NCBI GenBank assembly: GCA_964643045.1 | Contig: CAZXSC010000001.1 | Location: 66,296-130,295, forward strand | Direction of reading: 5' to 3' | Source: an uncultured Rhodospirillaceae bacterium | Lineage (GTDB): Bacteria > Pseudomonadota > Alphaproteobacteria > Rhodospirillales > UBA2165 | Length of the DNA: 64,000 nt | In this document: positions 5,471 to 35,183 of the stretch, piece by piece | Position numbering within the stretch: position 1 is the first letter of the stretch | Layout of the letters: each line of letters starts with the position of its first letter | Notes under the pieces: model-generated | What the model saw: only the letters and a program-made list of their open reading frames with translations | Databases searched by the model: none | Told to the model about the DNA's origin: nothing | Program-made: the position numbers and the translations under genes

Positions 5471-5562
5471 TGGACCAATTAATCTCCTGTTCTGGCGATA
5501 ATAATGGTACACATTATTTTGCTAATTTTTTGCTATGGTTTTGTGCTAAGGGTCGTGTACGT

Positions 5563-6273
5563 TTAAATTTTATTATTTTGAATGATTCCGCCTAGATTCA
5601 ATATTGGCTGTAACACCGGGATTAAGTAGTCTTTATTTTTCTTTAGAAATTGTTTTAAGTCATTTGGGGATATTATAGCTAATTTTTCATATTCATTGGT
5701 AGCGTAATTTTTATGACTGTGATGAATATCCCTAGCCGTCATTTTAGACTTTAACCTCAATACAATATCAATTACTCCAGTTTCCACATTTTCAACAAGG
5801 CCCAAAACCAACGGAACAGTAACTTGGGAGCGCTTTAAGCCTAATTCTTCTTCAAGTTCTTCTAAGATTTGAATCTTTGGGTCTCGGTTGGCTAACCCCC
5901 CAGCGGGGGCCGTTTCCCAGTATCCTTTATCAGATATCACAGTTTTGCTTCGAAGACCGAGCACTAAGCCATCTGCGCATGTTAATATTCCGGCGACAGC
6001 AGCCGGGCGTACCGTAAGCCCTAACTCAAAAAGTTCTGGCGCCCGCCGTCTAGCTAAAGCCTCTTTGTAGTTTATGGCTTGTAGCGTAATACTGTTGAAT
6101 TTATACTCAACTAGCGAATACATTGTATTATTTTTTAGGTTTGATCCTCGCCGGGCTTTCTCATTAGCCCAAATGTTTTCTATATGGTGTACTATTCTAT
6201 CTGGCAGAGCAAATGGAGCTTGTACAATTATTTTACATGATTCATCGATAGAAAATGTTGCCGTTTTTGTCAC
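5563..6273 (-). CDS. Hypothetical protein with a degenerate Nudix-like box
   Basis: 236 aa with a GTG start. GGLANRDPKIQILEELEEELGL loosely fits Gx5Ex7REUxEExGU, with substitutions at the first Glu and the Arg. Confidence 0.4.
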   Translation of the reverse strand: MTKTATFSIDESCKIIVQAPFALPDRIVHHIENIWANEKARRGSNLKNNTMYSLVEYKFNSITLQAINYKEALARRRAPELFELGLTVRPAAVAGILTCADGLVLGLRSKTVISDKGYWETAPAGGLANRDPKIQILEELEEELGLKRSQVTVPLVLGLVENVETGVIDIVLRLKSKMTARDIHHSHKNYATNEYEKLAIISPNDLKQFLKKNKDYLIPVLQPILNLGGIIQNNKI

Positions 6274-6345
6274 TTGAGATTTTTATTGAATTTCGTAATT
6301 AAAGTCGGTTTTTAATCTAGATCAATATTTTATGGTAAATTATTC

Positions 6346-6993
6346 TTAGATGTGGTGATTTAATTCATTTAAATTCGATACGAACGTACATCCCGGTGGC
6401 CATTCGCTTTTATTGGTTGGAGGTGTATGTAAGACGATTGTTTGGAGACCCGCTGAACTTGAAGAATGTGCCCCTGCTGGTGTGTCTTCAATTCCTATGG
6501 AAAAGTTTGCGCTAACTTGAGCTTGATGAAGGGCTTTTAGATAAGGCTCTGGCGAGGGCTTACCATTCTTTACGTTTTCTGCGGCGATTACAAAGCTGAT
6601 CCACTTCGAAAGACCGGTTTTGTTTAACCAATAAGTTGTTAAATCTTGATTGTTTGAGGTTACTATTGCGTTGATCCAGCCCCTTTTATGGGTGCACGCC
6701 AAGAGGCTATATGCTCCTGCTGAAGGTTTTACGTTGCTGTAATTTTCTTTGATAAGAACCTGATAAAACGATAAAAGTTCACTTATATTTTCCGTTATAC
6801 CGTGGGTTTCTTTTAAATAACTTATTGCTTCAGTTAATGGTGGTCCATTCAGTAAATCAAATTCACTTTGGCTGGGAATACGATCAAAATGCGTGAGAAA
6901 AGATTCATAGACCATCTGTAGAATACCTTTGCTGTTTGCTAATGTCCCATCTAAGTCAAAAAATAACCCCCGTTTAATTTTTTTTTGAGTCAT
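6346..6993 (-). CDS. HAD-superfamily hydrolase (phosphatase/beta-phosphoglucomutase-like)
   Basis: The FFDLDGTLANS motif I (DxDxT) and IGIEDTPAGA motif IV region are present; 215 aa. Confidence 0.8.
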   Translation of the reverse strand: MTQKKIKRGLFFDLDGTLANSKGILQMVYESFLTHFDRIPSQSEFDLLNGPPLTEAISYLKETHGITENISELLSFYQVLIKENYSNVKPSAGAYSLLACTHKRGWINAIVTSNNQDLTTYWLNKTGLSKWISFVIAAENVKNGKPSPEPYLKALHQAQVSANFSIGIEDTPAGAHSSSSAGLQTIVLHTPPTNKSEWPPGCTFVSNLNELNHHI

Positions 6994-7060
6994 GTTAAAT
7001 TAGAAATATATAAGCATTTTGCGTTGAGTTATTGGACATTAAAGTTGGGCCTATAAGATT

Positions 7061-7888
7061 TCATTTAATTTTTTGAAAAACATAAAGGCGATTCTGACCA
7101 AACTTGCCAAATTGATCCTTTGATGTTTCCGAAATGGCTATGTTTACCGCTGTTGCCGCTTCCACGAGTGGATGCGAATAATCAACCTCGCCATTATTAA
7201 TTAAAGGTGTCAATACGTATAGGACAATATCATGCAGGCTGATAAAATCTTCGATCTCAATCAATTTCATGTTTTGAGCTTCAGTATGAGGTAGGATTAC
7301 GTTTTCATCTAAAAACAAATTATATTCTGCTGGTGTTCTAGGTGGAAGGCCAACGGCCATGCGAGTTTCATTTTGTAAGGCGTAGGTTTGTTGTGAATTT
7401 TCTATTAGAAGTATGTAGCCCCCCACTTGAAGTTTTGTGCAGAGTAGAGTTATAGCTTGTTTTTGGAGCTCTATCTTGTTCAGATTTATTAGGCATCTAA
7501 CCGAGAAGATGATGTCATACATCGATGAAAGGTGTTCTAATTTGGTAACATCATTTACGGCGAAGGATAATCTTTTATCAGGTATTTTGAGGGATGTTTT
7601 TTTTCTATTAGCAGCGTCAATCATGTCAGGTATATAATCAAAGCCCTCGAATTTAAGATTTTGGAATTCCTGGGCTAATGGAATGCTATTTTGTCCATTT
7701 CCACAGCCAACTTCCAACACAGATTTTAAATTATTTTTGGCTTTTAATATTTGACGAAATGCACGGATCAGCGCATTAATTTCCATATCTTTCGCGCTAG
7801 AGGTCTTGGTTGTTGCCAACGTACCTTGTCCATGCTCTTGTGCGAGCCGTAGCCAGTGTTTTTTGATTTGATCAAGTGACAATGGCAT
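7061..7888 (-). CDS. Class I SAM-dependent methyltransferase
   Basis: VLEVGCGNGQNS is a SAM-binding motif I; 275 aa. Confidence 0.8.
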   Translation of the reverse strand: MPLSLDQIKKHWLRLAQEHGQGTLATTKTSSAKDMEINALIRAFRQILKAKNNLKSVLEVGCGNGQNSIPLAQEFQNLKFEGFDYIPDMIDAANRKKTSLKIPDKRLSFAVNDVTKLEHLSSMYDIIFSVRCLINLNKIELQKQAITLLCTKLQVGGYILLIENSQQTYALQNETRMAVGLPPRTPAEYNLFLDENVILPHTEAQNMKLIEIEDFISLHDIVLYVLTPLINNGEVDYSHPLVEAATAVNIAISETSKDQFGKFGQNRLYVFQKIK

Positions 7889-7930
7889 TAATTTCTCTTC
7901 TGATAGTATTGTGAAGTCGGCAGAGTGTAT

Positions 7931-8989
7931 TTAATTTTGAACATGTTTCCACGTTAAAGCGGTCCCCTTAAAAAGGTCGCGCGTAGCACACAGACCTATA
8001 ATTTTTGGCAAGTTATTTGGAGGAAGACCAAAACCCGGTCGTATAGAACGCACGTTCTCTGGTGTTATCTTTTCACCTTTTTTGATATTTTTAGTGACAT
8101 AGAGTGAGGGGCGGAGCAGGATGTTATCTTTTTCGGCTTCGATCGCATCTACTTTAATTTCGCCCATCGATTCCCATGCTAGTCGGCAATCGTTGACTAA
8201 TTGTTTCAACTCGTGGGGCTCCAAGGAGAATGATGAATCTACTCCGCCATCTTGCCGGGAAAGTGTTAAGTGTTTTTCAATAATACATGCTCCCATTGGG
8301 ATTGATGCCACTGCAGTAGCGGTTCCAGGTGAATGGTCAGATAAACCAATTGGAATGTTATATGTTGATTGTAAAAATGGAATAGTGCGTAAATTATAGT
8401 CTTTTGAGTTTGCTGGATAAGCACTGACACAATGAAGAAGGGCTATCCCGGTAGCACCACCTTCTGTTGCTGTTTTTACGGCCTCCGAAATTTCTATCTG
8501 ATTTGCTAGGCCAGTTGAAATTATAAGGGGTTTTTTTGTTTGAGAACATTTAAGTATTAATGGAGTGTCAATGCATTCAAAAGAAGCGATTTTGTAAGCA
8601 GGGCAGTCAAGTTCCTCCAGAAAATCAACAGCGGTTTCGTCAAAAGGGCTACTGAAAATTATCAGACCTAATTCTTTTGCCCGAACAAATAGTTGCGGAT
8701 GCCAGTCCCAGGGCGTATGAGCTTCTTGGTAAAGATCGTAGAGGCGTCTACCTTTCCACGGCCCATCGGTTATCATAAACTCCGGCCCGTCATGGTCCAG
8801 CGTAAGAGTATCTGCTGTATATGTTTGTAGTTTTATGGCATCAACACCAGCTTCGGCGGCAAGTTCGATAAGTTTGATGGCTCGGCTTAAGTCGCCGTTA
8901 TGATTACCCGATAATTCAGCAATTATGAATGGGGGTCTGTTTAGTCCAACACTTTTATTGGAGATTTTAAACACCGTTTGATGCTTCAT
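7931..8989 (-). CDS. pseI: Pseudaminic acid synthase (NeuB-family, PseI type)
   Basis: 352 aa containing FIIAELSGNHNGDLSRAIKLIELAAEAGVDAIKLQTY...WKGRRLYDLYQEAHTPWDW...PAYKIASFE. The signature is PseI-like rather than NeuB/LegI-like. Confidence 0.88.
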   Translation of the reverse strand: MKHQTVFKISNKSVGLNRPPFIIAELSGNHNGDLSRAIKLIELAAEAGVDAIKLQTYTADTLTLDHDGPEFMITDGPWKGRRLYDLYQEAHTPWDWHPQLFVRAKELGLIIFSSPFDETAVDFLEELDCPAYKIASFECIDTPLILKCSQTKKPLIISTGLANQIEISEAVKTATEGGATGIALLHCVSAYPANSKDYNLRTIPFLQSTYNIPIGLSDHSPGTATAVASIPMGACIIEKHLTLSRQDGGVDSSFSLEPHELKQLVNDCRLAWESMGEIKVDAIEAEKDNILLRPSLYVTKNIKKGEKITPENVRSIRPGFGLPPNNLPKIIGLCATRDLFKGTALTWKHVQN

Positions 8990-9097: not shown

Positions 9098-11005
9098 TTA
9101 ACACTTAAGAAGTTCCAGAATGGTGTCTTTGATATATCTCTGGGGATCGTTAATTTCACCTTTCCCATAGTAGTCCCTCTGCATTTTTTTTAGTTTATCT
9201 TTTGGCATATATCTGCTGTGTTCGATGAAGTTTTTTACTCGCTGTCGTAAAATTTTTTCATCAAATACCATGATAGGATAGGGGCTATAATCATGTAAAT
9301 AAGATGTAATAGGGTCGCCATTTGCCATGGCATCAAAAGCAAAAACAGGAATATCTTCAGCTAAACATTGGTCGCATAGTGAAGTTAACCGGGCTATAAC
9401 AAAATCTGACATGGCAGCTATCTGATATGATCTTTCGCTGATGTCGTAATTTGTGTCAATCTCTAGGTTTGGGATCAGCGAAATGGAATTCTTAATGTGC
9501 AAGAATGCCGGTATTTCAAGCCAATCGCAATTTTTTCCCCTGATTATAAAAACACAGCTCGTATTTTCTTTAGCGATTGCTATGATTGTATTATAAAAAT
9601 ATAGATTATCAACCCAGCCAATTCCTGGGCTACAGGCATTTGTAAACGGATCTGGTAACGAGTGAAAATCTAAAACGAGGCAAACCTTAGAATATTGGCC
9701 AAATCTATTTTTGCGTTCAATCTGAGCCACTCTTTTATGAGAAGGTATTCTTTGGTGCATTGGATCACCAGATATAATGATGTCTTGTAATACTGCATAG
9801 GCGCGATTTTCCATCGCTTTCTGTGTTATTTTCCCATGTACAAAAAATACATCGAGAATTGGTGCGAAGCATAACATAAAAGGCAGGAAAAACCGTTCTT
9901 GAACGGCAATTGTTTTGATGCCCATTGTCTGTAAGGCGATTGCGGCGGGTTTTGGAAACAGAAATGAATATCCAATCAGCGCAAGTTTTGAGCCTTTAAA
10001 TAATTCAAAGGATTTTACATATCTGTTTATTTGTAATGTGGTCAAAGCTAGGATGAATGCTCGATGTAAGGTATTTTTGTTTTTATTAAGAGTACGAATA
10101 TTTTTTATAAACAGCTGGATCAAATTCAAAACACTTATTGGATTTTTATCGATAAATGTTGGTTCAATATTGTTGCGACGGTAATCGTTAGAAATACTTA
10201 TGCGCTCGTTTGCGGTAATGTTTTCAGTTAACTCAATGTGGCATATTTGATTGCGGTGGAGCGGATTTTCTAGCTCGGTTGAATAGAAAATATCTTTTTG
10301 AAAAAGATTAGAGTAAGAAATACCTTTATGAGGGAAATAAAGAATATTTGCTTTTTTTTCTCGCCCACTTTCTCGGATCTCCGTGATTTGTTTTTTATTT
10401 GTGAGTTCACCGAGGTGAACCTTGTTCACAATATTTTGTGGTATTTTGATGTACTTACCTGAGTTTTTATATATGCGGTTAATTAATCCTATGAAATCTT
10501 GATTAACCCAAAAAGGGCATAAGTTTTTAATGTTTGTATACTGCGATAGTTTTAGTATAGAAAATACGGTTGTTCGAGGTTGATAAATGCGTGCGTTATA
10601 ACCTAGTTTTTTAAAATGATCAGCTGTGGCATAGGCTAGCGAGTAGGGACGAATGATATTATAAATAGTATCAAATAAAACCGACCTTGCTTTGTTTTTG
10701 GTTGAAGCTGGAACTATTGCTGAGAGAAAAGAAAAATCACTATTAACAAATTGTTTTTTTATTAGTATGTCGGCATATCTTGCGGGTAGGATTAGGTAGG
10801 CGGATACGTCGTAACTTTTCAAGGATCCATAATCTACCCAATCCACGCCTAATTTTTTTAATCTGTCCACCCAGCTTAAATCTCTGATCATACCTTTTGG
10901 TTCGATAAAAATAATATTATTGCCTATGAGTTTTAAGAAGCAGGCTACAGGAATGGTTGCAAGCGTCAGCCACCGGAAAACGACAATTTTTTTCTGTCTA
11001 CCCAA
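9098..11005 (-). CDS. Hypothetical 635-aa protein; the C-terminal half resembles a Rossmann/GT-B-type transferase domain
   Basis: Long uninterrupted ORF with a TTG start. I recognise no family motif. C-terminal pattern: LALIGYSFLFP...IKTIAVQER...VCLVLD...IIRGK...SDFVIARLTSL...IPVFAFD. Confidence 0.45.
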   Translation of the reverse strand: MGRQKKIVVFRWLTLATIPVACFLKLIGNNIIFIEPKGMIRDLSWVDRLKKLGVDWVDYGSLKSYDVSAYLILPARYADILIKKQFVNSDFSFLSAIVPASTKNKARSVLFDTIYNIIRPYSLAYATADHFKKLGYNARIYQPRTTVFSILKLSQYTNIKNLCPFWVNQDFIGLINRIYKNSGKYIKIPQNIVNKVHLGELTNKKQITEIRESGREKKANILYFPHKGISYSNLFQKDIFYSTELENPLHRNQICHIELTENITANERISISNDYRRNNIEPTFIDKNPISVLNLIQLFIKNIRTLNKNKNTLHRAFILALTTLQINRYVKSFELFKGSKLALIGYSFLFPKPAAIALQTMGIKTIAVQERFFLPFMLCFAPILDVFFVHGKITQKAMENRAYAVLQDIIISGDPMHQRIPSHKRVAQIERKNRFGQYSKVCLVLDFHSLPDPFTNACSPGIGWVDNLYFYNTIIAIAKENTSCVFIIRGKNCDWLEIPAFLHIKNSISLIPNLEIDTNYDISERSYQIAAMSDFVIARLTSLCDQCLAEDIPVFAFDAMANGDPITSYLHDYSPYPIMVFDEKILRQRVKNFIEHSRYMPKDKLKKMQRDYYGKGEINDPQRYIKDTILELLKC

Positions 11006-11150
11006 TATTAAATTTTCTTGTCATACGGTGATCTGATCTAATGATTTGTTTTGAATTTATATATCTAACTTTCAATATTTTTCTTAGCCAGGTTTTCTAA
11101 AACAACTGATAACGGATAGTTATTTTAAATATCTTTTGGATTTCAAATTC

Positions 11151-12773
11151 TTAGACAGGGGAGTTATTAACATTAGCTAATAGCTTCGCTTGAGATTTGA
11201 TTTCAGCCCGGCGGTTTTTTGCAATTTCTCGAAAAGAATGGAGGACGTCTTTATTTTTAAGATCACCTGCAATATTCTTAGTTTCATCAGGACTTTGTTG
11301 AAGGTCTATTAGAATTTCAGTTGCTGGGGGGCTAGCGTCATGCTCTGAGATTCGTTCTTTAATTATATATTTATAACGGTCATTTCGAAAACACTGATAG
11401 ATTGGGCCTTCTAAGGGGTCACATGGTCCGCGATGGGTATGCTCAGCAACTACAAAATCAGTTTTTTGCGTGTTGCTCAATAGTGACTTACCACAAAACC
11501 CGGGGTCGATTGGGAGATCTAAAGCTTCACAGATTGTGGGGGCTACGTCGATGCTACTGGCTAAAGTTTGGTGACGTTCTATTGGGACGCCCGGACCATT
11601 AAGCAGAAATGGTATATGCAGATATTTATCATGAAAACAACCAGTAACAGATGTGCTAGAAAGAGCATGCTGGCCCTTGAATCTGACCGCTCCGTGATCG
11701 CTGGTGATGGCGACAACTGTATCTTTCACAATATGGTTTGGTAGAGATTTAAGAAAATTATTTAAATTAGTATCTACATAATTAAGTGCCATGTCGTAAG
11801 TATACTGTTCACGATTACACGCGCCAAGACCCTGTCTTGATTGGTATGATTGTGTCGGCCGCATTACATATTGATGCTCTGAACAAATATTGTCATGTAT
11901 GTCCATCAGATGAACCACAGCAGCAAAATGTGCACCATTTAATGTATTAATCCATTTGAATATTATATCGAAAGCTGCTGCCGATGAAATTTGTTTATCA
12001 TAGGTTCGCATTCTAAGGTCGGTACCGGGAATTCGTTTGTGGTCCAAAGGCCTGAGGAGTTTATTTAAGTGGCGATATATTGGCTGAATTTTAAGAAAAC
12101 CCTCCAGACTATTGTTTGTAATACGATCAATATTTCTTTCTATGTATGCTTGGGGATCTGTGTTCAAGTGATCTCTATGTTCAAGTACAAGGTTGTGGAT
12201 AGTCTGAAAGTCATAACAAAAAATAGGGGTGTTGAGATTTCCAACAAACTCTGGAAGATTAATCCAGCGTTGTGTGTAATCTAAAATAAAGTCATAAAAC
12301 CAACTGACAACTTTTATTATTTCTCTTTGAACTGCCACATGTCCAATCTGTTCTTTTTTTCTTAGAATATGCCATAAGAAAGTTCGCCGCATACAGCGCC
12401 ATATCAACTCAATATCATAAAAACTTAGCGTAAAATCAGCGCCAGCATCAAAACCGTAGAGAGAATCAAGTATGTACGTTTTTGTTAGAAGACAGGTTGA
12501 ATATCCGTGGGTCTTTAAATAATTCAACAGGCTGGCTTTTCGCGTTGACATTCCTTGCATATATCCGCCCCTATCGAGCGGCAGTGAGGAGCTAAATATT
12601 GACGCCATGCTGAATTCTGTCGGGTTGCCATGGGAGTAAAAATTTTCACACCAAAGCCCTGAATTTGCGAGGTTTATTATAGTGGGGCAAATATCGGCTC
12701 GTGGGCCAGTCAGCGGAATACGGCTAGGTGTAGCGCTATCTGCTATGATAAGGATGAGATTTTTATTTTTCAT
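11151..12773 (-). CDS. Sulfatase-like alkaline-phosphatase-superfamily hydrolase/transferase, probably Thr-nucleophile type, soluble
   Basis: 540 aa. It has a metal-ligand strand LILIIADS and an ITSDHG motif. The nucleophile region HGNPTEFSMASIFSS aligns with G-x-x-T-x-(Y/F)-S-x-x-x-(M/I)-F-S of EptA/LtaS-type phosphotransferases, not with C/S-x-P-x-R. No N-terminal TM block. Confidence 0.7.
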   Translation of the reverse strand: MKNKNLILIIADSATPSRIPLTGPRADICPTIINLANSGLWCENFYSHGNPTEFSMASIFSSSLPLDRGGYMQGMSTRKASLLNYLKTHGYSTCLLTKTYILDSLYGFDAGADFTLSFYDIELIWRCMRRTFLWHILRKKEQIGHVAVQREIIKVVSWFYDFILDYTQRWINLPEFVGNLNTPIFCYDFQTIHNLVLEHRDHLNTDPQAYIERNIDRITNNSLEGFLKIQPIYRHLNKLLRPLDHKRIPGTDLRMRTYDKQISSAAAFDIIFKWINTLNGAHFAAVVHLMDIHDNICSEHQYVMRPTQSYQSRQGLGACNREQYTYDMALNYVDTNLNNFLKSLPNHIVKDTVVAITSDHGAVRFKGQHALSSTSVTGCFHDKYLHIPFLLNGPGVPIERHQTLASSIDVAPTICEALDLPIDPGFCGKSLLSNTQKTDFVVAEHTHRGPCDPLEGPIYQCFRNDRYKYIIKERISEHDASPPATEILIDLQQSPDETKNIAGDLKNKDVLHSFREIAKNRRAEIKSQAKLLANVNNSPV

Positions 12774-12802
12774 TGTAGTCTTTTAGGGTGTGTGAAAGAA
12801 CC

Positions 12803-13510
12803 TTATTCTATGTACGATTCCAAGGGCTGATCAGAGAGAGCAAAGCGTAATTTCATTTTGTCGTAACCGACAGAGGTTTTAAAAGTTCTAACTAGCATTT
12901 TATCGACCTCGTCAAGGTCAATCTTATCACTATTATTACTTAATATAACAAATTGCACCTCTGAATGATCAACGTCGGCCTCTTGGTGACAGATGAAAAG
13001 TTCGAGCTCTTCTTCAGTAAAGCCGCGTTTTCTATATTCGTCCTCAAAAAATCTAGAGACGGGAGCATACCATTCTTCAATTGCTGCTGTTACTGCCATT
13101 AAAGAAAATAAAGAGCTCTCTTCGCACACTGCCACCCATTCATTGTTAATGGATTCAAGGTCTTCATTGTAACGAATAGACGATTGGCGTGATACCGGCG
13201 TTCCTGCGAAAAGTTTGAATCGCATGTCGAGATGGTCTATATGTTCATCGGTTTCGCCTTCGTCATCAATTATCTCTTCCATTCTACTTACATCGTTGGT
13301 AGTGATTTGGTTCTTCGTTGAACCCGATTGAAGTTTCGATTTATACATATCCTGAATTTTTTGGCGAGTATTAAGTGCACGGTAGAGCTCAACGATCTCA
13401 GCACAAAGAATTTTTTGGCGGTCAAACTTGTTTTCTAAGAGAGCTGTGCAAAAAGGCATAGTTTCCAATGCGGGTTGTCTTTCCCGGATTAGGTCAAATA
13501 CATCAGTCAT
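12803..13510 (-). CDS. Hypothetical helical protein, possibly heme-oxygenase-like/TenA/PqqC-fold metalloenzyme
   Basis: Start reassigned to the ATG at 13510 (MTDVFDLIRERQ), 8 nt overlapping the upstream stop. It has a His/acid-rich helix ICHQEADVDHSEVQF and EEWYAPVSRFFEDEY. The family assignment is weak. Confidence 0.35.
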   Translation of the reverse strand: MTDVFDLIRERQPALETMPFCTALLENKFDRQKILCAEIVELYRALNTRQKIQDMYKSKLQSGSTKNQITTNDVSRMEEIIDDEGETDEHIDHLDMRFKLFAGTPVSRQSSIRYNEDLESINNEWVAVCEESSLFSLMAVTAAIEEWYAPVSRFFEDEYRKRGFTEEELELFICHQEADVDHSEVQFVILSNNSDKIDLDEVDKMLVRTFKTSVGYDKMKLRFALSDQPLESYIE

Positions 13511-14390
13511 TTTTTTTCCTTTTGGCCCGGTTTTTATTGTCACGTTCTTTATTAGCAAGACCCGAGATACGCCAGGCAGCAAAGCGCCACTTAAGTGTAT
13601 CCATCTGTTCCATATTTAGCTCAGCCATATTCTTGCGATCCACATCATACCAAGAGTAAAAAGGGTCATCTTCCAAAAATTCAGGAAATTGATCGCTAAT
13701 AAGTTCAATATTATCAAATCTCGAGGCCAATAATGTTGGGATCCTTGCAAAAAGCGGCTCGCCCCGGTTGTCGTTAATGGGTTTGATTGGTTCGAGCCCA
13801 ATTTTGCGGCGATTAATATTTATGATCGGCTCATAGACATGTTCATAATTTTGATTTGCATCATCTACGCAAACTAACGAATTTTCCTCGTATAAAGGCA
13901 ATAATGCTTCAATCTCTTGGCTGACTGTATTCCAAGTATGATCTGAATCATGGTGAGAAAAATGAATTTTTTTTGTCAGCTCACCTATAATAGCCAAGCC
14001 AATATAAGGGTCAGTAGAGTCTCCTGAGATAAAAGTCCAATGCTCACTAATTGATTTGTTATGGACTTTTTCCAGAGTATCAGCGCAGACTGAGCGAATA
14101 AATGAGGCTTTTGAAGCATTCGTATCCCACGAAAATACATGACCACCTGTCATCATCGCGTGGTGAATGAGAAGGAGTGTGCTTGCTCCTACACCAGTTT
14201 CAACCAAATTGGCAGAACGCTCAAACACTGGATTCTCTAAGTATTTTTTTAGCAATCTAAACTCTGAATCTGGCAATGAATTTGCCCATCTTGGTAGGCT
14301 ATGCTTAACCGCGATCAGGTATTGATCAAGGTCCGACATGATACTTTCCCGTGAACCATAATAAAAGTCATGCATCAGATTTTGTTGCAC
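13503..14390 (-). CDS. Class I methyltransferase-fold protein (TylF/CmcI-like)
   Basis: LVETGVGASTLLL resembles the ETGVxxGxS motif of TylF/MycF-type O-methyltransferases. The start is uncertain (GTG 14390 or ATG 14375). Confidence 0.5.
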   Translation of the reverse strand: MQQNLMHDFYYGSRESIMSDLDQYLIAVKHSLPRWANSLPDSEFRLLKKYLENPVFERSANLVETGVGASTLLLIHHAMMTGGHVFSWDTNASKASFIRSVCADTLEKVHNKSISEHWTFISGDSTDPYIGLAIIGELTKKIHFSHHDSDHTWNTVSQEIEALLPLYEENSLVCVDDANQNYEHVYEPIININRRKIGLEPIKPINDNRGEPLFARIPTLLASRFDNIELISDQFPEFLEDDPFYSWYDVDRKNMAELNMEQMDTLKWRFAAWRISGLANKERDNKNRAKRKKND

Positions 14391-14393
14391 GTA

Positions 14394-15131
14394 TTAAACG
14401 CGTTTACAAGGATCATTGTGAGCATAACGCAACGCCAAATTTTTTAATACCGGATGGATTATAAAATGGCTCGGTGAATCTGGTGGGAGTGTATTACTGA
14501 CTTCAGCGGGGAATATGCCGTTTGATCTAAAATGGTCAAGAATGTTAGCGAGTAAATCGGCGCGGAAAACAGGATCCAATATGTAGTCGATATCCATTTT
14601 GGGCATTGGTTGATACCAGGCGCGGGAAATTATATTACCTGTGTCTATTCCCTCATTTACCCAGAATGCAGTCATTCCGAGTTGCCCATCCTTTAGCAGA
14701 CCGTAGTAAAATCCAGTTGCGCCACGGTCCCTTGGTAAATAACCACCATGAATGTGTATAAATTTTGTTTTAAGTTTGAGGAGAACCGGTTTAAGTAAAA
14801 TTCGCGGAAACCCAGAGTAAACAAGTACTGGCATACTCAGTGCGGATATTTCAGAGACACCTTCTATTGAATTTATGTCCTTATTCTTCAAATACCCAAC
14901 GGGACAATCGACAGAACTAAGAGATTCAGTTATGGATTGTGCGGGTCTAAAGGTAAAATCTAATGTTTTGAGGTAAATAGATTGGCTTCCTGACCAACTT
15001 GGCTCTTCGCCGGGCATGACGTATATACTGCCTAGATTAATTTCACGTTTAATTAACATCTGCACATAAGCACGTGAACGAATGGTAGGTGCAAGAATCA
15101 ACCCAACATCGTTGAGTGTTTTGGCAATCAT
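14394..15131 (-). CDS. Formyltransferase-fold protein with a variant catalytic motif
   Basis: FIHIHGGYLPRDRGA compares with canonical NxHxSLLPxxRG, and the VNEGIDTGNII Asp motif is retained. Start placed at ATG 15131, which forms an ATGA overlap with the upstream stop. Confidence 0.55.
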   Translation of the reverse strand: MIAKTLNDVGLILAPTIRSRAYVQMLIKREINLGSIYVMPGEEPSWSGSQSIYLKTLDFTFRPAQSITESLSSVDCPVGYLKNKDINSIEGVSEISALSMPVLVYSGFPRILLKPVLLKLKTKFIHIHGGYLPRDRGATGFYYGLLKDGQLGMTAFWVNEGIDTGNIISRAWYQPMPKMDIDYILDPVFRADLLANILDHFRSNGIFPAEVSNTLPPDSPSHFIIHPVLKNLALRYAHNDPCKRV

Positions 15132-15703
15132 CGTGTTTTTATTTCCCACGTTGCTACTAGTTGTTTCTCAACCTTTATGAGTTGGGCGAGCTTTTCAGCT
15201 ACCGAAGGCGTGTAATAATTGGCTGGGATTGCACAAAGGGCATCTGTTAGTTTTAGAAGCGTTGAAAGATATTGTGGTTCCTCGAAAACTCGCGTAGCAA
15301 TCGATAAGGCCTGACCAAATAGGACTAGTTCGCTGATTGAGGCAACTGATGAGCCAATAGCTTTGTTTAGGGATGGTGTGTAAAATGAAAACAAGCGCCG
15401 AAAAATCTCAAACTTCGAAAGCAATGCATCTATAGTCTTGCGGCCGTCATCGAGTGTTGTGGAGTAATTTTCCATATTATTGATAGCGGTTGTCAAAAGT
15501 GATTCTAAAGATACACCCTCTGGTATTGATTTTTTTTCAGTTAATAGACAACCTTCGGTTTTTGCTTCGCGGACAATACGCGTTATAGCGTTATCGCGGC
15601 TTTCTTTCCAAGCATCTAAAAAAGACTGGCCTTCGCACTTTGCAAATTCGTACCTTTCCGGATTCTTGAAAGCATCAGGTCTTTCGTAAGGATATTTTTT
15701 CAA
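15128..15703 (-). CDS. Hypothetical protein (191 aa, predicted helical)
   Basis: The ORF is translationally coupled at both ends (TTGA at 15703-15700, ATGA at 15131-15128). No motif recognised. Confidence 0.5.
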   Translation of the reverse strand: MKKYPYERPDAFKNPERYEFAKCEGQSFLDAWKESRDNAITRIVREAKTEGCLLTEKKSIPEGVSLESLLTTAINNMENYSTTLDDGRKTIDALLSKFEIFRRLFSFYTPSLNKAIGSSVASISELVLFGQALSIATRVFEEPQYLSTLLKLTDALCAIPANYYTPSVAEKLAQLIKVEKQLVATWEIKTR

Positions 15704-16230
15704 GGCGAAGATTTTCGCGGCGTTGAGACGATCTGGGAATATATCAGTTCTGCGATCTCACCTGGATCGGCGAAGATCTCCGGTTTTTTAATTATGAGAT
15801 CAGGATTAACAGGCCGAGGGAACGGTATATCAATTCCTACAACATCTGAAATGATCCCGTTCCGAACTTTTTTATAAAGACCCTTAGAATCCCTTGATTT
15901 GATTATGTCGATGGGCGTGTCGAGAAAAACTTCAAAATACCGCTCGAAATTTTGTCGGTTCCACTCTTGTAAATCCGGAAAAATAGATAAAGCAGCGACA
16001 ATAATAATCAACTCTGATTCTTGGTCTAGCATCTTGCATAGATTGGAGAATCGCAGATGATTCTTTCTTCGGCCAGCTGCATTGAATTCTAGGTCCTCTT
16101 CCCAGAGTGAACGAAGCTTATCACCGTCTAGGAAAAGTACTTTATGTTGCTGATTACGGAAGATGCTAACCAATTCTCGGGAAACAGTAGTTTTACCTGC
16201 GCCGGATAATCCAATGATCCAAATTATCAT
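15700..16230 (-). CDS. Adenylylsulfate-kinase-fold P-loop kinase; candidate cytidine diphosphoramidate 3'-kinase (Cj1415-like)
   Basis: 176 aa with IIWIIGLSGAGKTT Walker A, as in CysC. It is the last gene of a four-gene set syntenic with cj1418c-cj1415c. Confidence 0.65.
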   Translation of the reverse strand: MIIWIIGLSGAGKTTVSRELVSIFRNQQHKVLFLDGDKLRSLWEEDLEFNAAGRRKNHLRFSNLCKMLDQESELIIIVAALSIFPDLQEWNRQNFERYFEVFLDTPIDIIKSRDSKGLYKKVRNGIISDVVGIDIPFPRPVNPDLIIKKPEIFADPGEIAELIYSQIVSTPRKSSP

Positions 16231-16242
16231 ATATTAATCAAT

Positions 16243-17013
16243 CTAGTCTAAGCGGCCATTTGTAGAAAGTTTTTGTGCAATCACGAGATCTTGCGGACTG
16301 TCAATTTCTACCCAACCCCCATCTATCTCAATTGCATTGGGTCTATAGCCATTCGTGATCATACCCTGTAGTAGGTCTGTCATGTATAGGTTTTTTAAAT
16401 CTCGCGAACAATTAAATGGGGTCAATCCTTTCTTATTGGCATCTTGAGCTATTGAATATACAGCCTTAAGTTGGTCGATAGCTTTACCTCGGAATATGGT
16501 CATACCAATATATTGGGATTGAATTTGCGATAGATTTCTTGAGTTCTGACCAATTTCTATAATTTCCCTTTTTTTATTTAAGAGAAGTGTTTCAGCATCA
16601 GATAAGGGATCTTCGAAGCGCAGTTTCCAATAGTTCAACCAATCATTATCTATAACAACACCAAAAGAAATTGAAGAATTTAATACTTTTTTAAAAACGC
16701 GCCGTGAATAAGCTATGTCTCCATAACTAACTATAAAATCGCAATCAAAATAACTTTTTGCACAAAATAGTGAATAAACCATATTTGTGGTTTTATAATT
16801 TTCATTCATCACTATTCTTGCTTGGTTGCTAGGTAAGTGATCGGCTCTATAACCACCAACAATAATGATATCATCAACGCCGAGTGATTTGGCAACTTCA
16901 ATTTGTCGATGGATAAGCGGTTGTCCGTTTAGTTCAACCATGCATTTTGGCATAGTCTTTGTTAAAGGTAATAGTCGGGTCCCTTGGCCTGCGGCAAGGA
17001 TTATTAAGCGCAT
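16243..17013 (-). CDS. Nucleotidyltransferase (LicC/GlmU-N-like); candidate CTP:L-glutamine-phosphate cytidylyltransferase (Cj1416-like)
   Basis: 256 aa with the MRLIILAAGQGTRLLPLTKTMPKCMV motif. Its position in the cassette supports the call. Confidence 0.65.
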   Translation of the reverse strand: MRLIILAAGQGTRLLPLTKTMPKCMVELNGQPLIHRQIEVAKSLGVDDIIIVGGYRADHLPSNQARIVMNENYKTTNMVYSLFCAKSYFDCDFIVSYGDIAYSRRVFKKVLNSSISFGVVIDNDWLNYWKLRFEDPLSDAETLLLNKKREIIEIGQNSRNLSQIQSQYIGMTIFRGKAIDQLKAVYSIAQDANKKGLTPFNCSRDLKNLYMTDLLQGMITNGYRPNAIEIDGGWVEIDSPQDLVIAQKLSTNGRLD

Positions 17014-17642
17014 TTTTTAATCCATTGGGAAAATAATTCGTGATCGATCTGTTCTGACGGGCTCTCACGCTCCGGATGCCACTGGACGGCGATAATGGGT
17101 AAGTTCGGGTGGACCAGGCCCTCTATAATTTGGTCATCGCTGATGGCAAAACTCTTTAGCGAAGATGCAAGTTGTCCAATTTTTACGCCTTGATTATGAT
17201 AGCTATTCACCGTTAATAACACATCACTATCAGCGCTGGAAAACTTTTCATCCATGGTGATTGTATGATTGATAGCGACATGATTTTCAGTCAATTGTCT
17301 GCTTAGTCCCCCACCGAAAAAGCGGTTGATAACTTGTAAGCCGCGGCAAACACCGAATACGGGCAGACCTATTTGTGTTGCCTTTGCTAACAATCTTTCT
17401 TCGGCCTGGTCTCGTTCGGACAGCTGCTTCCTTTCACCAAGGCTATTGCCGCCGGTAAGAAGTAATCCGGCCGGTGAGACGGCATCAAAGTAAATAGTAG
17501 GATCGGGTAGGTTGTTAGGTATAAAAATAGGCACGACATTATATTTTGATAGGAACTTAACCCAATCGTGTGCAATAGCGTCTCGACGTTCGATATAGGA
17601 AGTGTTTTCGGAGATACGCATCGAGACAAGGATATTAATCAC
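17004..17642 (-). CDS. Class I glutamine amidotransferase/peptidase C26 (PuuD-like); candidate CDP-L-glutamine hydrolase (Cj1417-like)
   Basis: 212 aa with the nucleophile elbow GVCRGLQVIN and VQWHPE His motif. A GTGA overlap links it to the upstream gene. Confidence 0.65.
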   Translation of the reverse strand: MINILVSMRISENTSYIERRDAIAHDWVKFLSKYNVVPIFIPNNLPDPTIYFDAVSPAGLLLTGGNSLGERKQLSERDQAEERLLAKATQIGLPVFGVCRGLQVINRFFGGGLSRQLTENHVAINHTITMDEKFSSADSDVLLTVNSYHNQGVKIGQLASSLKSFAISDDQIIEGLVHPNLPIIAVQWHPERESPSEQIDHELFSQWIKKCA

Positions 17643-20600
17643 AACCTTTTTACCGTTCCGTTCTGGCCATCAATTTCGATTTCACTACAGCCACGAAGGC
17701 TTTCGAATAATGTTTGGCCGCAGCCGATAGCGGCCGGCAAGCTAAATTCTGCAGCCCTGATGCTCATGTGTGAACCGATGCCGCCGTACTGTGTCAATAG
17801 ACCTACTAAAGAGTGGCTAAAAATCCAGTCGTAACCTGGATCAGCGGAGCGGATTGCTACGATAGCCCCTTCAAGATCGTAGGGTGGTTTTTGATCATCT
17901 AACCATACTATGCGAGCTCTTACGCATTTATGAGTAACGAAATTTGGCTGATGAAGAATGACCTCGAATGCTGAAACATCGTTGACAGTGCGTATCAGCT
18001 CTGGCAGGCGTATGGCACAGGTCAGCACCCATCTTTTTTCATTAAATTCCACCATACGCCGAAAATAACTAGTTTGGGCATTGTTGAAGCTGTCGGTGCC
18101 AAGGCGGAAATATTCGTCAATCGGGATAAAAGCCAGTTGATTGCGGCTAAAGCCTATTTTTTCCCCAAGTAAAGCTACGTTCTCTAGGGCGTCGTTAAGG
18201 TTACGCATAAATTGGAATTTTGCTGATTCCCGTGCTGAAATTGCGCTTCTAACAAAATCGATAAATTTATCAAAACTAATGTTCAATCCTAAATCGCTGA
18301 AACATTTCTCAATATTGCTTGCTTTGTCAGAAAGCACCTCCGCAATGTCCTTGTCTACGGGCGCTTGCAGATGGTCACAAGTACTCTTGAGCATTCTTTG
18401 TTTATTGAAAATTTGCTCTATATCAGAGGAATAGTTGGGTGAGTTGATATCATATGAATGTGGACGCAGATGACCGTAGCGTTCTATCATCTTATCCAAT
18501 TCAAGGCGGTCTTCAGCATAAGCCAACATATCTTCAGAGAAGCGGCTGGCCACTGTCGGAATGCCAAGTAGCACGTTTTCAAACTCCACTTCCTCTATGA
18601 CTCCACAATCCCGCAATCCTCTCAGTAAGGTCATAGCAATAAAAGCGTAGCGCGCTAGGATAGAAAAAGACACAATCCCATAATTTTGGCAATCTTTAAG
18701 CAAATTTCGAATATGCCGTGCAATGTCAGCGACTGTCTCGTGCGGCTCTTCTATTAGTTGATTGCGACGATCTTCTAGTATATTGAGTGAATTTTGAAGG
18801 TCTATGATAGGTTCTACACTTCCATTAACGATATTTTGCGTAAGTTCTCTTAAACAGAACTTGAAGGTTTCAATTTGTTCAGGACTGAGACCAGCTTCTT
18901 GCATACGTTTAGCTTGTTGTGGCCAATCAGGCGCTAGACAAGTGGCAGCAATTTCAAACTCTATTTTGTCGTGAAGATGAGGTTGTTGGCACAGGCGCTC
19001 AATGTTAGCGTTAATCCAATTTTCGGCAATTGAAGTTTCTAAACCATCAGGTAGGAAAGAATTCAAGCTGGCACGCACATCGACATAGGGTCTACCTGCG
19101 ACGGAAACAATAAGAGCCTCAGGATCAACTTTCCTATAACCAATCCGAGCACGTGCTTTGGCCCAACTCAAGTCGCCAATTAAAGTTTGGTAAATGCTCA
19201 AGGCTAATGGATTAGGTGTTTCTCCGAGCATTTCGACTGGATTCCAATCCGGCATCGAACCAAGGACTGATGTTTTGCCCAATACCCCATTGCGGGGCCT
19301 CATTAAGGACCGAATAAATTCCTGAGCACCAGTCACCATGTCAAAAAAATCATCTTCGGCAATTGGCAAATTTTTGGTGTTCGTCAGTGGCCTAATTTGG
19401 AAAAGATGACAGGTACTATTTCGGTCGATTCCGTATTCAATATTCAATGTATTGATGTGAGACAGCGCCATCATCTCTTGGCCCAGCTTAAAAGTTTTCT
19501 GTGCCGTTTGAGGGAGGTGCGATATGTCGTGTCCAGGTAAAGCATAATATGTTTTAAGATTTCCCTTGCCTCCCGAGGTAACCAGATCTGAGCGTCCGGT
19601 AGTCTCGTCTGCATTAATAATGAGATAGGGGGCTCCGCTTCGTGGATCTTCAGTTAGTAAAACACCACTTGAAAGTAAACCTTCTACTTGAGGTTGTATC
19701 AGAACTTCATCTTTAGTAGACCTAATTCGACCATTTCTGGAAAAGCTGTTTATGACCTGCTGGATCGCGTTAGTGAGTTGCTTTTTATTGGTGGGATCAA
19801 CGTCAAGAATTGAATCAAAAGCACCCGCAGCCGAAAACTCATATTGGTCCTCGCTTGTAGTGGAGCTGCGGACGATTAAAGGTCCTTTGGGGAAAGCTTT
19901 TTTTATGGATACTAATATCTTCGTTGCGTTATTTTCCCAGCGGGCAACCGAAAAACGCTCTCTTGCTAGGACCCGTGCTTCTTTTGCTAGTGGCGCAATA
20001 TGATCCAGTGTTTGTGCTTTACCTTTAAATACAGTTTGTGAAATTTTGACTTTGTCAGTGATTAAAGCGGCTAAGTCATCAAGGTCAACGTTTTTACTCG
20101 TGTTACCAATCAGGGCCTGCTGAAGGTCATTAAAGTTAGCTAAGGGATCTTTTTTGACTAATTTTTTTGCGGCTGATAAGAATAGATCGAATGACCCTGA
20201 CCTAACGCGCATAGCAACTGTCACTTGATTGTTAGAAGATGTACGAACATTTCCAAAAGTTATGCCTTGTCCAGAATGTAGGTTAAGGAAGAATTTTGGC
20301 AGGTAAAGGACGTCTGCGCGGACGATAATTGTTTCAAGGGGCTTGTCTGTTGCTAGCAGCATAGATACTAGGTCCCCCTGATTCAGGCGGTCTTTTTGAT
20401 AAATCAATTTAAGGTTGGGATAACTCTGAAGCACTTTTTCAATGTGATAGCCACCGACATATGAAATGCCACAGTCATCTAAATTTTTTAATGCGTGGAG
20501 CAACCATTCCATTACGGGCTTGTTGAAGGTTTTATCTCGATCAAGAGAGTGCGGTTGGCTTTTTTGAGGGTCTAGACGGCGTGTGCCTTCGGCTGGCTCA

Positions 20601-20683
20601 ATGATGATCACGGCAGGTGCGCTTTCCCTGTCCGGGGGCTCGGCAAGATTATTGGTGAAGTTATTATGTTGTTGTTTAGTCAT
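17639..20683 (-). CDS. PEP-utilising-enzyme family protein (PpsA/PPDK architecture) with an N-terminal nucleotidyltransferase-like extension; candidate L-glutamine kinase (Cj1418-like)
   Basis: 1014 aa. ATP-grasp region LIVRSSTTSEDQYEFSAAGAFDSILDV. C-terminal phospho-His swivel domain GGIGSHMSIRAAEFSLPAAIGCG. About 215 N-terminal residues contain VIIIEPAEGTRRL, a degenerate LAAGxGTRL. Confidence 0.65.
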   Translation of the reverse strand: MTKQQHNNFTNNLAEPPDRESAPAVIIIEPAEGTRRLDPQKSQPHSLDRDKTFNKPVMEWLLHALKNLDDCGISYVGGYHIEKVLQSYPNLKLIYQKDRLNQGDLVSMLLATDKPLETIIVRADVLYLPKFFLNLHSGQGITFGNVRTSSNNQVTVAMRVRSGSFDLFLSAAKKLVKKDPLANFNDLQQALIGNTSKNVDLDDLAALITDKVKISQTVFKGKAQTLDHIAPLAKEARVLARERFSVARWENNATKILVSIKKAFPKGPLIVRSSTTSEDQYEFSAAGAFDSILDVDPTNKKQLTNAIQQVINSFSRNGRIRSTKDEVLIQPQVEGLLSSGVLLTEDPRSGAPYLIINADETTGRSDLVTSGGKGNLKTYYALPGHDISHLPQTAQKTFKLGQEMMALSHINTLNIEYGIDRNSTCHLFQIRPLTNTKNLPIAEDDFFDMVTGAQEFIRSLMRPRNGVLGKTSVLGSMPDWNPVEMLGETPNPLALSIYQTLIGDLSWAKARARIGYRKVDPEALIVSVAGRPYVDVRASLNSFLPDGLETSIAENWINANIERLCQQPHLHDKIEFEIAATCLAPDWPQQAKRMQEAGLSPEQIETFKFCLRELTQNIVNGSVEPIIDLQNSLNILEDRRNQLIEEPHETVADIARHIRNLLKDCQNYGIVSFSILARYAFIAMTLLRGLRDCGVIEEVEFENVLLGIPTVASRFSEDMLAYAEDRLELDKMIERYGHLRPHSYDINSPNYSSDIEQIFNKQRMLKSTCDHLQAPVDKDIAEVLSDKASNIEKCFSDLGLNISFDKFIDFVRSAISARESAKFQFMRNLNDALENVALLGEKIGFSRNQLAFIPIDEYFRLGTDSFNNAQTSYFRRMVEFNEKRWVLTCAIRLPELIRTVNDVSAFEVILHQPNFVTHKCVRARIVWLDDQKPPYDLEGAIVAIRSADPGYDWIFSHSLVGLLTQYGGIGSHMSIRAAEFSLPAAIGCGQTLFESLRGCSEIEIDGQNGTVKRL

Positions 20684-35159: not shown

Positions 35160-35183
35160 AATTTTGATAACTCCAATTTGGAT

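Follow-up and report, generated by a model that had tools for sequence, protein, structure and literature searches.

A five-gene block adjoining a Cj1415-1418-type phosphoramidate cassette: a recurrent formyltransferase-like pair and a candidate Thr-type transferase

In the 64,000-nucleotide stretch of DNA analysed here (the window), five minus-strand open reading frames (11151-15703) lie directly 3' of a Cj1415-1418-type phosphoramidate cassette. They are tentatively read, at slightly less than an even chance, as an accessory set of the Cj1415-1418-type pathway in three layers: a conserved module, a transferase and locus-specific tailoring. Block and cassette together were judged to be a variant of the known phosphoramidate pathway, with predicted functions for the five proteins.

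Cassette and gene layout

All four Cj1415-1418 enzyme families are present and adjacent in the window, and the order 1418-1417-1416-1415 is shared with most related loci. The predicted L-glutamine kinase of Cj1418 type (17639..20683, minus strand) was matched by NF004508 (PRK05849) over residues 212-1014 (E 8.3e-236); it bears an N-terminal extension of about 210 aa, an extra domain compared with the C. jejuni system, and has relatives in at least 579 species genomes. The Cj1417-type amidotransferase (17004..17642, minus strand; PF07722) is a putative gamma-glutamyl-CDP-amidate hydrolase; its best NCBIfam match was NF045546 (E 1.7e-30, 106.6 bits, under the model's curated cut-off of 250). The Cj1416-type cytidylyltransferase (nucleotidyltransferase; 16243..17013, minus strand; PF12804 and PF00483) is kept in 75 of 81 loci according to tblastn. 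The product of 15700..16230 (minus strand), a Cj1415-type kinase with the APS-kinase fold (PF01583, E 3.5e-35; NF004041, E 1.7e-44), is by homology a predicted CDP-amidate 3'-kinase. Comparisons were made with the best 80 genome loci, a set in which Campylobacter does not figure.

In C. jejuni, MeOPN formation also involves the methyltransferases Cj1419/1420 and the transferases Cj1421/1422. The families found downstream in the window differ from these: a helical protein termed ORPH, a His-x-His formyltransferase fold, a Methyltransf_24 protein, a heme-oxygenase-like (HO-like) protein and a Thr-type sulfatase fold of the alkaline phosphatase (AP) superfamily. The cassette genes are the same by family, and would follow the same logic, in which cytidine diphosphoramidate is built and then 3'-phosphorylated by Cj1415-Cj1418 (PMC3907429, PMC6429109). 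The transfer step of C. jejuni MeOPN was still called unresolved in 2025 (PMC12409886).

The kinase and ORPH genes overlap by 4 nt (15700..15703), as do the ORPH and formyltransferase-like (FMT-like) genes. A 3-nt gap precedes the methyltransferase gene, which overlaps the HO-like gene by 8 nt, and a 29-nt gap separates the latter from the AP gene. The five genes are thus co-oriented, with overlaps or gaps of at most 29 bp, and follow the cassette without a break, as the preliminary description had it; all the motifs it quoted in the five proteins were found. The next gene, which belongs to a pseudaminic acid (Pse) module, begins after a gap of 145 nt. Terminator-like sites at the block showed no excess over background, and no TM-like segment was detected in any of the five proteins.

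The ORPH/FMT-like pair

The FMT-like protein (14394..15131, minus strand) has the Formyl_trans_N fold (PF00551, E 2.4e-10, 40.9 bits for a cut-off of 26.1). Of the Asn-x-His...Asp triad of PF00551, the His and Asp are kept and the Asn is replaced by His in 23 of 23 aligned members. In this alignment of cassette-linked homologues, H126, H128, G130, P133, G137, D163 and G165 are invariant, as are the His, Asp and LP..RG motifs. The family profile matches Fmt at E 1.7e-13; its HiH aligns with NvH of Met-tRNA formyltransferase and its IDtG with lDaG. The altered catalytic motif beside an intact Asp motif, noticed earlier in the single protein, therefore extends to the whole family, with His-x-His throughout and an invariant D163. 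With Fmt, PurN, ArnA and PseJ/WlaRD the protein has in common the PF00551 fold, the LP..RG loop and the His and Asp of the catalytic site. It differs from them in the His that replaces the catalytic Asn in every member, in its constant pairing, sometimes fusion, with ORPH, and in its genomic linkage, which is to the phosphoramidate cassette and not to genes for purines or amino sugars.

ORPH (15128..15703, minus strand) is an all-helical protein of 191 aa. It had no sequence match in Pfam, NCBIfam or the PDB. Its AF2 model (pLDDT 86.9) contains six helices, and a Foldseek search of the PDB gave no match below E 0.08. The label of orphan has nevertheless to be dropped: an iterative HMM brought up homologues in about 22 further cassette loci, immediately upstream of the FMT-like gene, and these form a conserved family. 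Two fusions, kinase with ORPH (L049:6702-7784) and ORPH with FMT (L041:16548-17906), tie the pair to the cassette kinase.

ORPH and the FMT-like gene form a recurrent two-gene extension of the cassette in roughly one quarter to one third of the 80 related loci; the FMT-like gene itself adjoins the cassette in 24-27 of them. The order 1418-1417-1416-(methyltransferase)-1415-ORPH-FMT recurs in Chloroflexota, Planctomycetota, CPR, Alphaproteobacteria, Firmicutes and one archaeon. Whether a locus has FMT does not depend on whether it has the kinase (Fisher p = 1). In two self-contained FMT operons (L067 and L072) the sole other non-cassette gene is a TagF-like transferase. FMT and ORPH are both absent from the phosphonate loci that hold the AP protein and the kinase.

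The AP-superfamily protein

The AP gene (11151..12773, minus strand) encodes a soluble Thr-type protein of 540 aa with a sulfatase fold (PF00884, E 1.1e-26). HMM alignment with solved sulfatases placed Thr52 at the formylglycine Cys/Ser position and Met56 at the motif Arg; the C/S-x-P-x-R motif of S1 formylglycine sulfatases was not found. Both a hydrophobic (TM) segment and a signal peptide are absent, and with them the multi-TM anchor of EptA/LtaS. Thr52 is invariant across family members and D12, D359 and H360 are conserved, as for a Thr nucleophile of the EptA/LtaS type. These results bear out the earlier description of a protein with Thr at the formylglycine site, without TM helices and without C/S-x-P-x-R.

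The nearest folds of the AF2 model (pLDDT 86.3) in Foldseek were choline sulfatase, galactose-6-sulfatase and phosphonate monoester hydrolases. The choline and galactose-6 sulfatases matched best (E about 5e-18), and the top 50 matches were all sulfatases or phosphonate monoester hydrolases; for these two groups TM was 0.46-0.57, with the C-terminal subdomain included. EptA, LtaS and MCR were considered as nearest neighbours and rejected: in the sequence comparison LtaS ranks behind many sulfatases (E about 2e-13) and aligns over the C-terminal part only. A weak NCBIfam match to the Thr-type phosphatase PafA was also obtained (E 0.015). Members of the family have a helical insert of about 170 aa, and a search of 5.8 billion proteins returned four close homologues only.

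The suggested likeness to EptA consequently stands for the nucleophile, and fails for sequence and fold, where S1 sulfatases and phosphonate monoester hydrolases come nearest. A formylglycine sulfatase, the outcome named beforehand as contrary to a transferase, was found in respect of the fold branch but not of the motif, which is not intact. With EptA/MCR-1, LtaS and OpgB the protein shares the position of the Thr after a single acidic metal ligand, the D-H pair in TSDHG and the proposed ping-pong scheme of phospho-substituent transfer. It differs from them in being soluble, in its fold and sequence, in the helical insertion and in the proposed donor, which would be a nucleotide and not a lipid. 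Unlike the S1 sulfatases and phosphonate monoester hydrolases, it has a Thr nucleophile, Met for Arg and one acidic residue at the first metal-ligand position, and is predicted to be cytoplasmic.

Soluble Thr-type relatives adjoin the cassette operon or lie inside it in at least eight further loci from several phyla, including Haloferax and Cohnella. Members were found at the cassettes of L007, L023, L032, L053, L060 and L024, and more distant ones in L040 and L073; all have the Thr. Overlap or direct abutment of the AP gene with cassette genes was seen in L032 (order AP-1418-1417-1416-1415), L053 (between 1416 and 1415), L023 (Haloferax), L024 and L007 (after FMT), and L040 and L073 (ahead of 1415). 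Among non-redundant AP-superfamily ORFs near cassettes, Thr occupies the nucleophile position in 13 of 13, and 10 of the 13 are soluble. This recurrence makes the earlier proposal of a phospho-substituent transferase plausible; against it, family members also turn up where no cassette is in view (L008, L094-96, the P0002 contig). Another member, also with the Thr, lies in a phosphonate cluster (L092) with genes for PEP mutase, phosphonopyruvate decarboxylase, Fe-ADH, a cytidylyltransferase and a 1415-like kinase; this pairing, like the phosphonate monoester hydrolases among the closest folds, speaks for the proposal.

At cassette loci, genes of the AP-like, TagF-like (PF04464) and sulfotransferase-like (PF13469) kinds mostly exclude one another: of the eight AP loci, five lack both other types, and a sulfotransferase-like gene was seen in one. 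Loci without the kinase are enriched in TagF-like genes (p = 2e-5), and loci that have it in sulfotransferase-like genes (p = 0.04); the same two types appear in the PGAP annotation of Vibrio and Azospirillum plasmids. TagF-type CDP-glycerol phosphotransferases are the obvious users of CDP-amidate, and PAPS-type sulfotransferases of 3'-phospho-CDP-amidate. They occupy the place of the AP gene in other cassette loci, although their folds are unrelated to it. No gene of either type was found near the cassette in the window.

Methyltransferase and heme-oxygenase-like protein

The two remaining genes are locus-specific. The product of 13503..14390 (minus strand) is a class I SAM methyltransferase of the Methyltransf_24 (TylF/CmcI-like) type, with the motif LVETGVGAST and a PF13578 score of 44.8 bits (cut-off 26.3; E 2.5e-11). 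The TylF/CmcI-like fold proposed for it is accordingly upheld, with a weak match to CmcI itself (PF04989, E 1.7e-4). A sequence search of the PDB gave no match to it, and none of the 80 related loci has a homologue at E 1e-5; another Methyltransf_24 gene, unrelated to it by BLAST, adjoins the cassette in L015, L016 and L026.

The HO-like protein (12803..13510, minus strand) is a putative di-metal protein of the CADD/HDO type. Its matches are all under the family thresholds (PF14518, E 8.9e-5, 22.8 bits for a cut-off of 28.9; NCBIfam CADD, E 0.015). The best PDB sequence match was the 4-aminobenzoate synthase 9pj4 (E 0.075), whose VHQKADIYHSQ pairs with CHQEADVDHSE. An E...H region further upstream and the helix motif H-x3-D-x2-H align with this CADD-type enzyme; a difference from CADD/heme-oxygenase-like di-iron oxidases is that the protein has no conserved partner in other loci, and no homologue was detected in the 80 related loci at E 1e-5. 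The roles proposed for both proteins would follow from family membership, which for the HO-like protein is below threshold.

Co-occurrence with the cassette in the 80 loci, proposed earlier as a check of the block, was therefore seen for ORPH, FMT and the AP family, and the methyltransferase and HO-like genes had no counterpart. The view of the block as a tailoring and transfer set linked to the cassette remains plausible for ORPH/FMT and AP, though not as one conserved five-gene unit.

Proposed pathway and alternatives

Gene linkage and motif conservation were observed, and the chemistry set out here is what they would suggest. ORPH and the FMT-like protein may act as a two-protein module close to the kinase. 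Their target would most likely be the P-NH2 of cytidine diphosphoramidate or of its 3'-phosphate, the sole amine made by the pathway, and they would probably catalyse a folate-dependent N-formyl (one-carbon acyl) transfer through the retained His/Asp pair. For the AP protein, gene context is best read as pointing to a transferase that takes a phosphoramidyl or phosphonyl group from a donor of the cytidine-nucleotide kind. With one metal site, Thr52 would attack the head-group phosphorus, (3'-phospho)CMP would leave, and the covalent phosphoramidyl-Thr intermediate so formed would hand the group to a sugar hydroxyl; family members in other loci may perform the same reaction with CMP-phosphonates. 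The TylF-like methyltransferase could add an O-methylation and the HO-like protein some oxidation, both specific to this locus. Among the points against this reading, the catalytic Asn of the FMT-like protein is replaced, ORPH has no assignable fold, the AP-kinase association by itself is not significant, and the nearest solved relatives of the AP protein are hydrolases.

By sequence and fold these relatives are all S1 sulfatases and phosphonate monoester hydrolases, and with the weak PafA match they would also fit an AP protein that is itself a hydrolase. It could be a Thr-nucleophile 3'-phosphatase acting on by-product 3',5'-cytidine bisphosphate, the counterpart of CysQ where the donor resembles PAPS, or else an esterase for editing or trimming of the donor. 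The gene tends to accompany the 1415-type kinase, directly adjacent in L053 and L093, with an association that is not significant (7/36 vs 1/27, p = 0.12). A by-product phosphatase should, however, go with the sulfotransferase-like genes, from which the AP genes are mostly kept apart. In the L032 operon (10.7-kb contig), AP is the sole non-cassette enzyme gene seen. The active site has a single acid and a single Thr and lacks the Arg and Lys/His (GKWH) features, which would point to a substrate that is monoanionic and diester-like. We consider a hydrolase unlikely. Somewhat less probable again is that phosphoramidyl transfer is the work of a different protein, such as the glycosyltransferase-like member of the TIGR04372 family encoded at 22857-24155, 10 kb from the AP gene; the AP protein would then be its accessory or act on a different substituent. 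Genes of the two families co-occur in six loci, the window and L008, L092, L094, L095 and L096, and in the last five they lie beside or near each other. Against this, TIGR04372 homologues were sought and not found in L007, L023, L032, L053 and L060 or elsewhere among the 80 cassette loci, and the family has no known nucleotide-donor chemistry here and no PDB relative.

The five genes might instead serve the adjacent pseudaminic acid glycan. PseB, PseC, PseF and PseI are encoded just downstream, PseH and PseG were not recognised, and the FMT-like protein could N-formylate a UDP-4-amino sugar in place of the missing PseH; the Pse-pathway formyltransferase PseJ is among the PDB matches of its profile, and NeuB genes lie near the cassette in 12 loci. 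Yet the synteny of the ORPH-FMT pair is with cassette and kinase rather than NeuB or DegT, which are missing within 10 kb from most FMT loci (about 19 of 26 for NeuB), and the compact operons L067 and L072 hold no amino-sugar genes. The 145-bp gap sets the Pse module apart, and its first gene belongs to a family that occurs beside NeuB without any cassette. This role is highly improbable. In a separate observation, a 635-aa NeuB-associated protein of the window has a C-terminal half that is remotely TagF-like.

On the preferred reading of an accessory set, a bolder proposal can be made, which we regard as unlikely to hold in full: the soluble Thr-type sulfatase-fold family would be an unrecognised class of cytoplasmic transferases that move phosphoramidyl or phosphonyl groups from (3'-phospho)cytidine donors to glycans, with an ORPH/FMT pair that makes an N-formyl phosphoramidate. 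To our knowledge, an N-formyl-phosphoramidate, a P-N-C(=O) glycan decoration, has never been reported. Three of the five genes recur with the cassette in distant microbes, which makes them candidates for the tailoring and attachment steps of a rare P-N group.

Organization of the cassette and the downstream genes

All genes between about 460 and 47,650 of the window lie on the minus strand and form a single large glycan locus. The window is a metagenomic contig, the gene order of which is repeated on several assemblies. All four gene families of the Cj1415-1418-type phosphoramidate cassette were assigned at 15700-20683 (minus strand): the Cj1418-family glutamine kinase (17639-20683; PRK05849, E 8e-236 over residues 212-1014), the gamma-glutamyl-CDP-amidate hydrolase (17004-17642; best NCBIfam match, E 1.7e-30, 106.6 bits, under the model's curated cut-off of 250), a nucleotidyltransferase (16243-17013) and an APS-kinase-like protein (15700-16230). 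Five genes follow directly on the same strand, as had been described. They encode a 191-aa helical protein (ORPH, 15128-15703), a formyltransferase-fold protein (FMT-like, 14394-15131), a methyltransferase (13503-14390), a heme-oxygenase-like protein (HO-like, 12803-13510) and a 540-aa alkaline-phosphatase-superfamily protein (AP, 11151-12773). Their junctions are overlaps of 4, 4 and 8 nt and gaps of 3 and 29 nt, and no excess of terminator-like sites was seen at the block.

The family assignments made in the preliminary description agree with the Pfam results. AP matched PF00884 (E 1.1e-26), FMT-like PF00551 (E 2.4e-10) and the methyltransferase PF13578 (E 2.5e-11, with a weak CmcI match); a single-sequence PDB search with the last gave no match. 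HO-like matched PF14518 below threshold (E 8.9e-5) and the CADD model of NCBIfam at E 0.015. Its best PDB match was a CADD-type 4-aminobenzoate synthase (E 0.075), with VHQKADIYHSQ opposite CHQEADVDHSE. ORPH had no Pfam, NCBIfam or PDB sequence match. None of the five proteins has a TM-like segment.

Other genes of the glycan locus were annotated. A NodU/CmcH-type carbamoyltransferase (20690-22705) lies directly upstream of the cassette, as in locus L007 (1-1742, 56% identity), and L017, L039 and L069 carry weaker homologues. A TIGR04372-family glycosyltransferase-like gene (22857-24155) overlaps an FkbM-family methyltransferase gene (24148-25107) by 8 nt. A nucleotide-heptose pathway is encoded at 31591-37060 (SIS isomerase, HAD phosphatase, HldE-like kinase/nucleotidyltransferase, two SDRs and a transaldolase). 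In C. jejuni, heptose accepts MeOPN (PMC3907429).

The 635-aa neighbour

A 145-nt gap separates the end of the block from the gene of a 635-aa protein (9098-11005), which is followed by a pseudaminic-acid set on the minus strand: PseI (7931-8989), PseF (4733-5512), PseC (3569-4732) and PseB (2496-3494). PseG and PseH were not recognisable in this set (2496-8989); their place is taken by a 236-aa protein of no family (5563-6273), a HAD hydrolase (6346-6993) and a class I methyltransferase (7061-7888). The 635-aa protein had no Pfam or PDB match. Its family (about 497 representatives) gave a profile remotely TagF-like in the C-terminal half (hhalign 97.4%, E 1.4e-11). As the four family members examined all adjoin NeuB/CMP-transferase genes, with no cassette, the protein was set aside as a canonical phosphoramidate transferase. 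Its place is most probably in the pseudaminic-acid module, so that it competes only weakly for the role of phosphoramidate transferase; the family may be an undescribed family of nonulosonic-acid transferases.

Distribution of the cassette

An alignment of 15 Cj1418 relatives served as the query for a scan of genomes, one from each species. Of the 600 matched stretches listed, 579 encode a relative; the cassette is present in at least 579 species genomes. Comparisons cover the best 80 of these loci (L011-L090), none of them from Campylobacter, together with loci reached via the AP protein. The window's glutamine kinase homologue (17639-20683) begins with some 210 aa (residues 1-211) that lie outside the PRK05849 model. 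This extension is kept at many loci in a 'long form' of about 1000 aa, one relative of which (P0031) has a precomputed PF12804 nucleotidyltransferase match; a word-indexed protein search for relatives gave long-form members only. In L046, L047, L065, L080, L082, L088 and L090 (ORFs at about 9350-12320) and in L172 (5642-8158), the glutamine kinase carries a 1415-type kinase domain as an N-terminal fusion. An 838-aa protein labelled 'adenylyl-sulfate kinase' adjoins the cassette in Azospirillum.

The ORPH and FMT-like module

Of the 80 loci, 24-27 have FMT-like beside the cassette, and ORPH homologues were found directly upstream of it in about 22 (iterative HMM). The repeated order is 1418-1417-1416-(class I methyltransferase)-1415-ORPH-FMT, and it was found in Chloroflexota, Planctomycetota, a Nomurabacteria genome, Magnetovibrio, Cohnella and an Altiarchaeales archaeon. 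Gene fusions join kinase to ORPH (L049:6702-7784) and ORPH to FMT (L041:16548-17906). ORPH and FMT-like are thus a conserved module.

Seven residues are invariant in 23 aligned FMT-like sequences (H126, H128, G130, P133, G137, D163 and G165). When the profile was aligned to solved formyltransferases, HiH stood opposite NvH and IDtG opposite lDaG; the catalytic His and Asp are therefore retained, and Asn is replaced by His throughout the subfamily. The predicted ORPH model is of high confidence (pLDDT 86.9, pTM 0.85) and all-helical, and Foldseek returned nothing for it below E 0.08.

Whether a locus has FMT does not depend on the kinase (p = 1). In the compact operons L067 and L072, FMT occurs with a TagF-like transferase as the sole other extra gene. 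FMT loci are mostly without NeuB or DegT genes, and the phosphonate loci of the L092 group have no FMT. From these observations on the module we infer that the pair putatively acts on the pathway's own nitrogen. In the simplest route it would N-formylate the nucleotide-bound amidate. The FMT-like query gave no match against plasmids.

The AP protein

The threonine reported at the formylglycine position of sulfatases was verified: an HMM alignment pairs T52 with the formylglycine Cys/Ser of solved sulfatases and M56 with the Arg of their motif. In a search of 5.8 billion proteins the close relatives numbered just four (31-62% identity), each carrying P-T-[ES]-x-S-M. The AF2 model (pLDDT 86.3, pTM 0.89) includes a helical insertion some 170 aa long. 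The likeness to EptA that had been noted is confined to the nucleophile: the nearest folds in Foldseek (E about 5e-18, TM 0.46-0.57) were not LtaS or EptA but choline sulfatase, galactose-6-sulfatases and phosphonate monoester hydrolases. AP has a sulfatase-branch fold and, with T52 and M56 in place of Cys/Ser and Arg, cannot be a formylglycine sulfatase.

The family HMM detected AP-superfamily ORFs, all with the Thr nucleophile and mostly soluble, in 11 of the 80 loci. In L007, where AP has 35% identity, the order is carbamoyltransferase-...-1418-1417-1416-MT-1415-ORPH-FMT-AP, that of the window minus the methyltransferase and HO-like genes. Elsewhere the order is AP-1418-1417-1416-1415 (L032), AP-1415-ORPH-FMT-1418-1417-1416 (L040 and L073, Cohnella) or FMT-AP (L024); AP lies between 1416 and 1415 in L053 and overlaps 1418 in L023 (Haloferax elongans). 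Some AP homologues have no cassette in view.

The preliminary description had suggested that the five genes may be an alternative tailoring and transfer set. Its observations were confirmed and its interpretation is supported in part. ORPH, FMT and AP recur with the cassette, but AP homologues also occur without a visible one, and the methyltransferase and HO-like genes are locus-specific, neither having a homologue in the 80 loci at E 1e-5.

Candidate users of the cassette product

TagF-like (PF04464) and sulfotransferase-like (PF13469) genes likewise adjoin the cassette. They were counted in 63 loci of 15 kb or more and compared by Fisher test. TagF-like genes occur in 18/27 kinase-less and 5/36 kinase loci (p 2e-5), sulfotransferase-like genes in 3/27 and 13/36 (p 0.04) and AP-like genes in 1/27 and 7/36 (p 0.12). 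The three are mostly mutually exclusive, and 5 of the 8 AP loci lack both TagF-like and sulfotransferase-like genes. PGAP annotations show a cassette with a CDP-glycerol glycerophosphotransferase family protein and no adjoining cassette-type kinase on a Vibrio alfacsensis plasmid, and an adenylyl-sulfate kinase, cassette and sulfotransferase on an Azospirillum plasmid. This kinase-dependent sorting suggests two donor chemistries for phosphoramidate transfer and fits a CDP-amidate used by TagF-type enzymes and a PAPS-like 3'-phosphate form used by sulfotransferase folds. Window proteins compared as single sequences (hhalign) with the TagF-like and sulfotransferase-like profiles gave no match.

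For the AP family the proposed role is that of a third user of the cassette product. The TIGR04372-like partner could instead be the true transferase: five further loci have such a gene together with an AP homologue, and in L094-96 it lies directly after the AP gene, near heptose-pathway genes. A single-sequence PDB search with the TIGR04372 protein gave no match. AP could also be a hydrolase.

Association with phosphonate genes

A metagenome scan with the AP alignment returned mostly ordinary sulfatases; the further AP family members it yielded all have Thr. One locus, L092, encodes a PEP mutase (E 1e-63), a split TPP decarboxylase, an Fe-alcohol dehydrogenase, a cytidylyltransferase, a 1415-like kinase, a TIGR04372-like protein and an AP homologue. 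L092:14335-18650 is a phosphonate cluster, the split enzyme being phosphonopyruvate decarboxylase. The PEP mutase cluster together with the cytidylyltransferase and the Cj1415-like kinase hints at 3'-phosphorylated CMP-phosphonate donors. In L093, methyltransferase, kinase and AP genes are consecutive. The heptose-pathway genes flanking AP/TIGR04372 (L094:5984-10341, and L095) have 48-61% identity to those at 31.6-37 kb of the window. Some phosphonate clusters carry sulfatase and adenylylsulfate-kinase genes with no role assigned (PMC8942020). The AP family thus has its constant partners in the kinase and the cytidylyltransferase, and the head group varies.

Significance

Tailoring and attachment of the Cj1415-1418 phosphoramidate have yet to be resolved even in C. 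jejuni (PMC12409886). No description of the ORPH/FMT/AP module was found in the literature searched, of which the coverage was incomplete. The cassette and the block together are the known phosphoramidate pathway in an altered form, with candidates for these late steps. The cassette is accompanied by three candidate user enzymes (TagF-like, sulfotransferase-like and a Thr-type sulfatase fold), sorted by presence of the 3'-kinase, and the ORPH/FMT-like pair is a further conserved companion. These are concrete, clonable candidates, some of them from the cultured organisms Haloferax elongans, Cohnella panacarvi and Magnetovibrio blakemorei. A common set of kinase, cytidylyltransferase and AP enzyme links phosphoramidate and phosphonate decoration of glycans.
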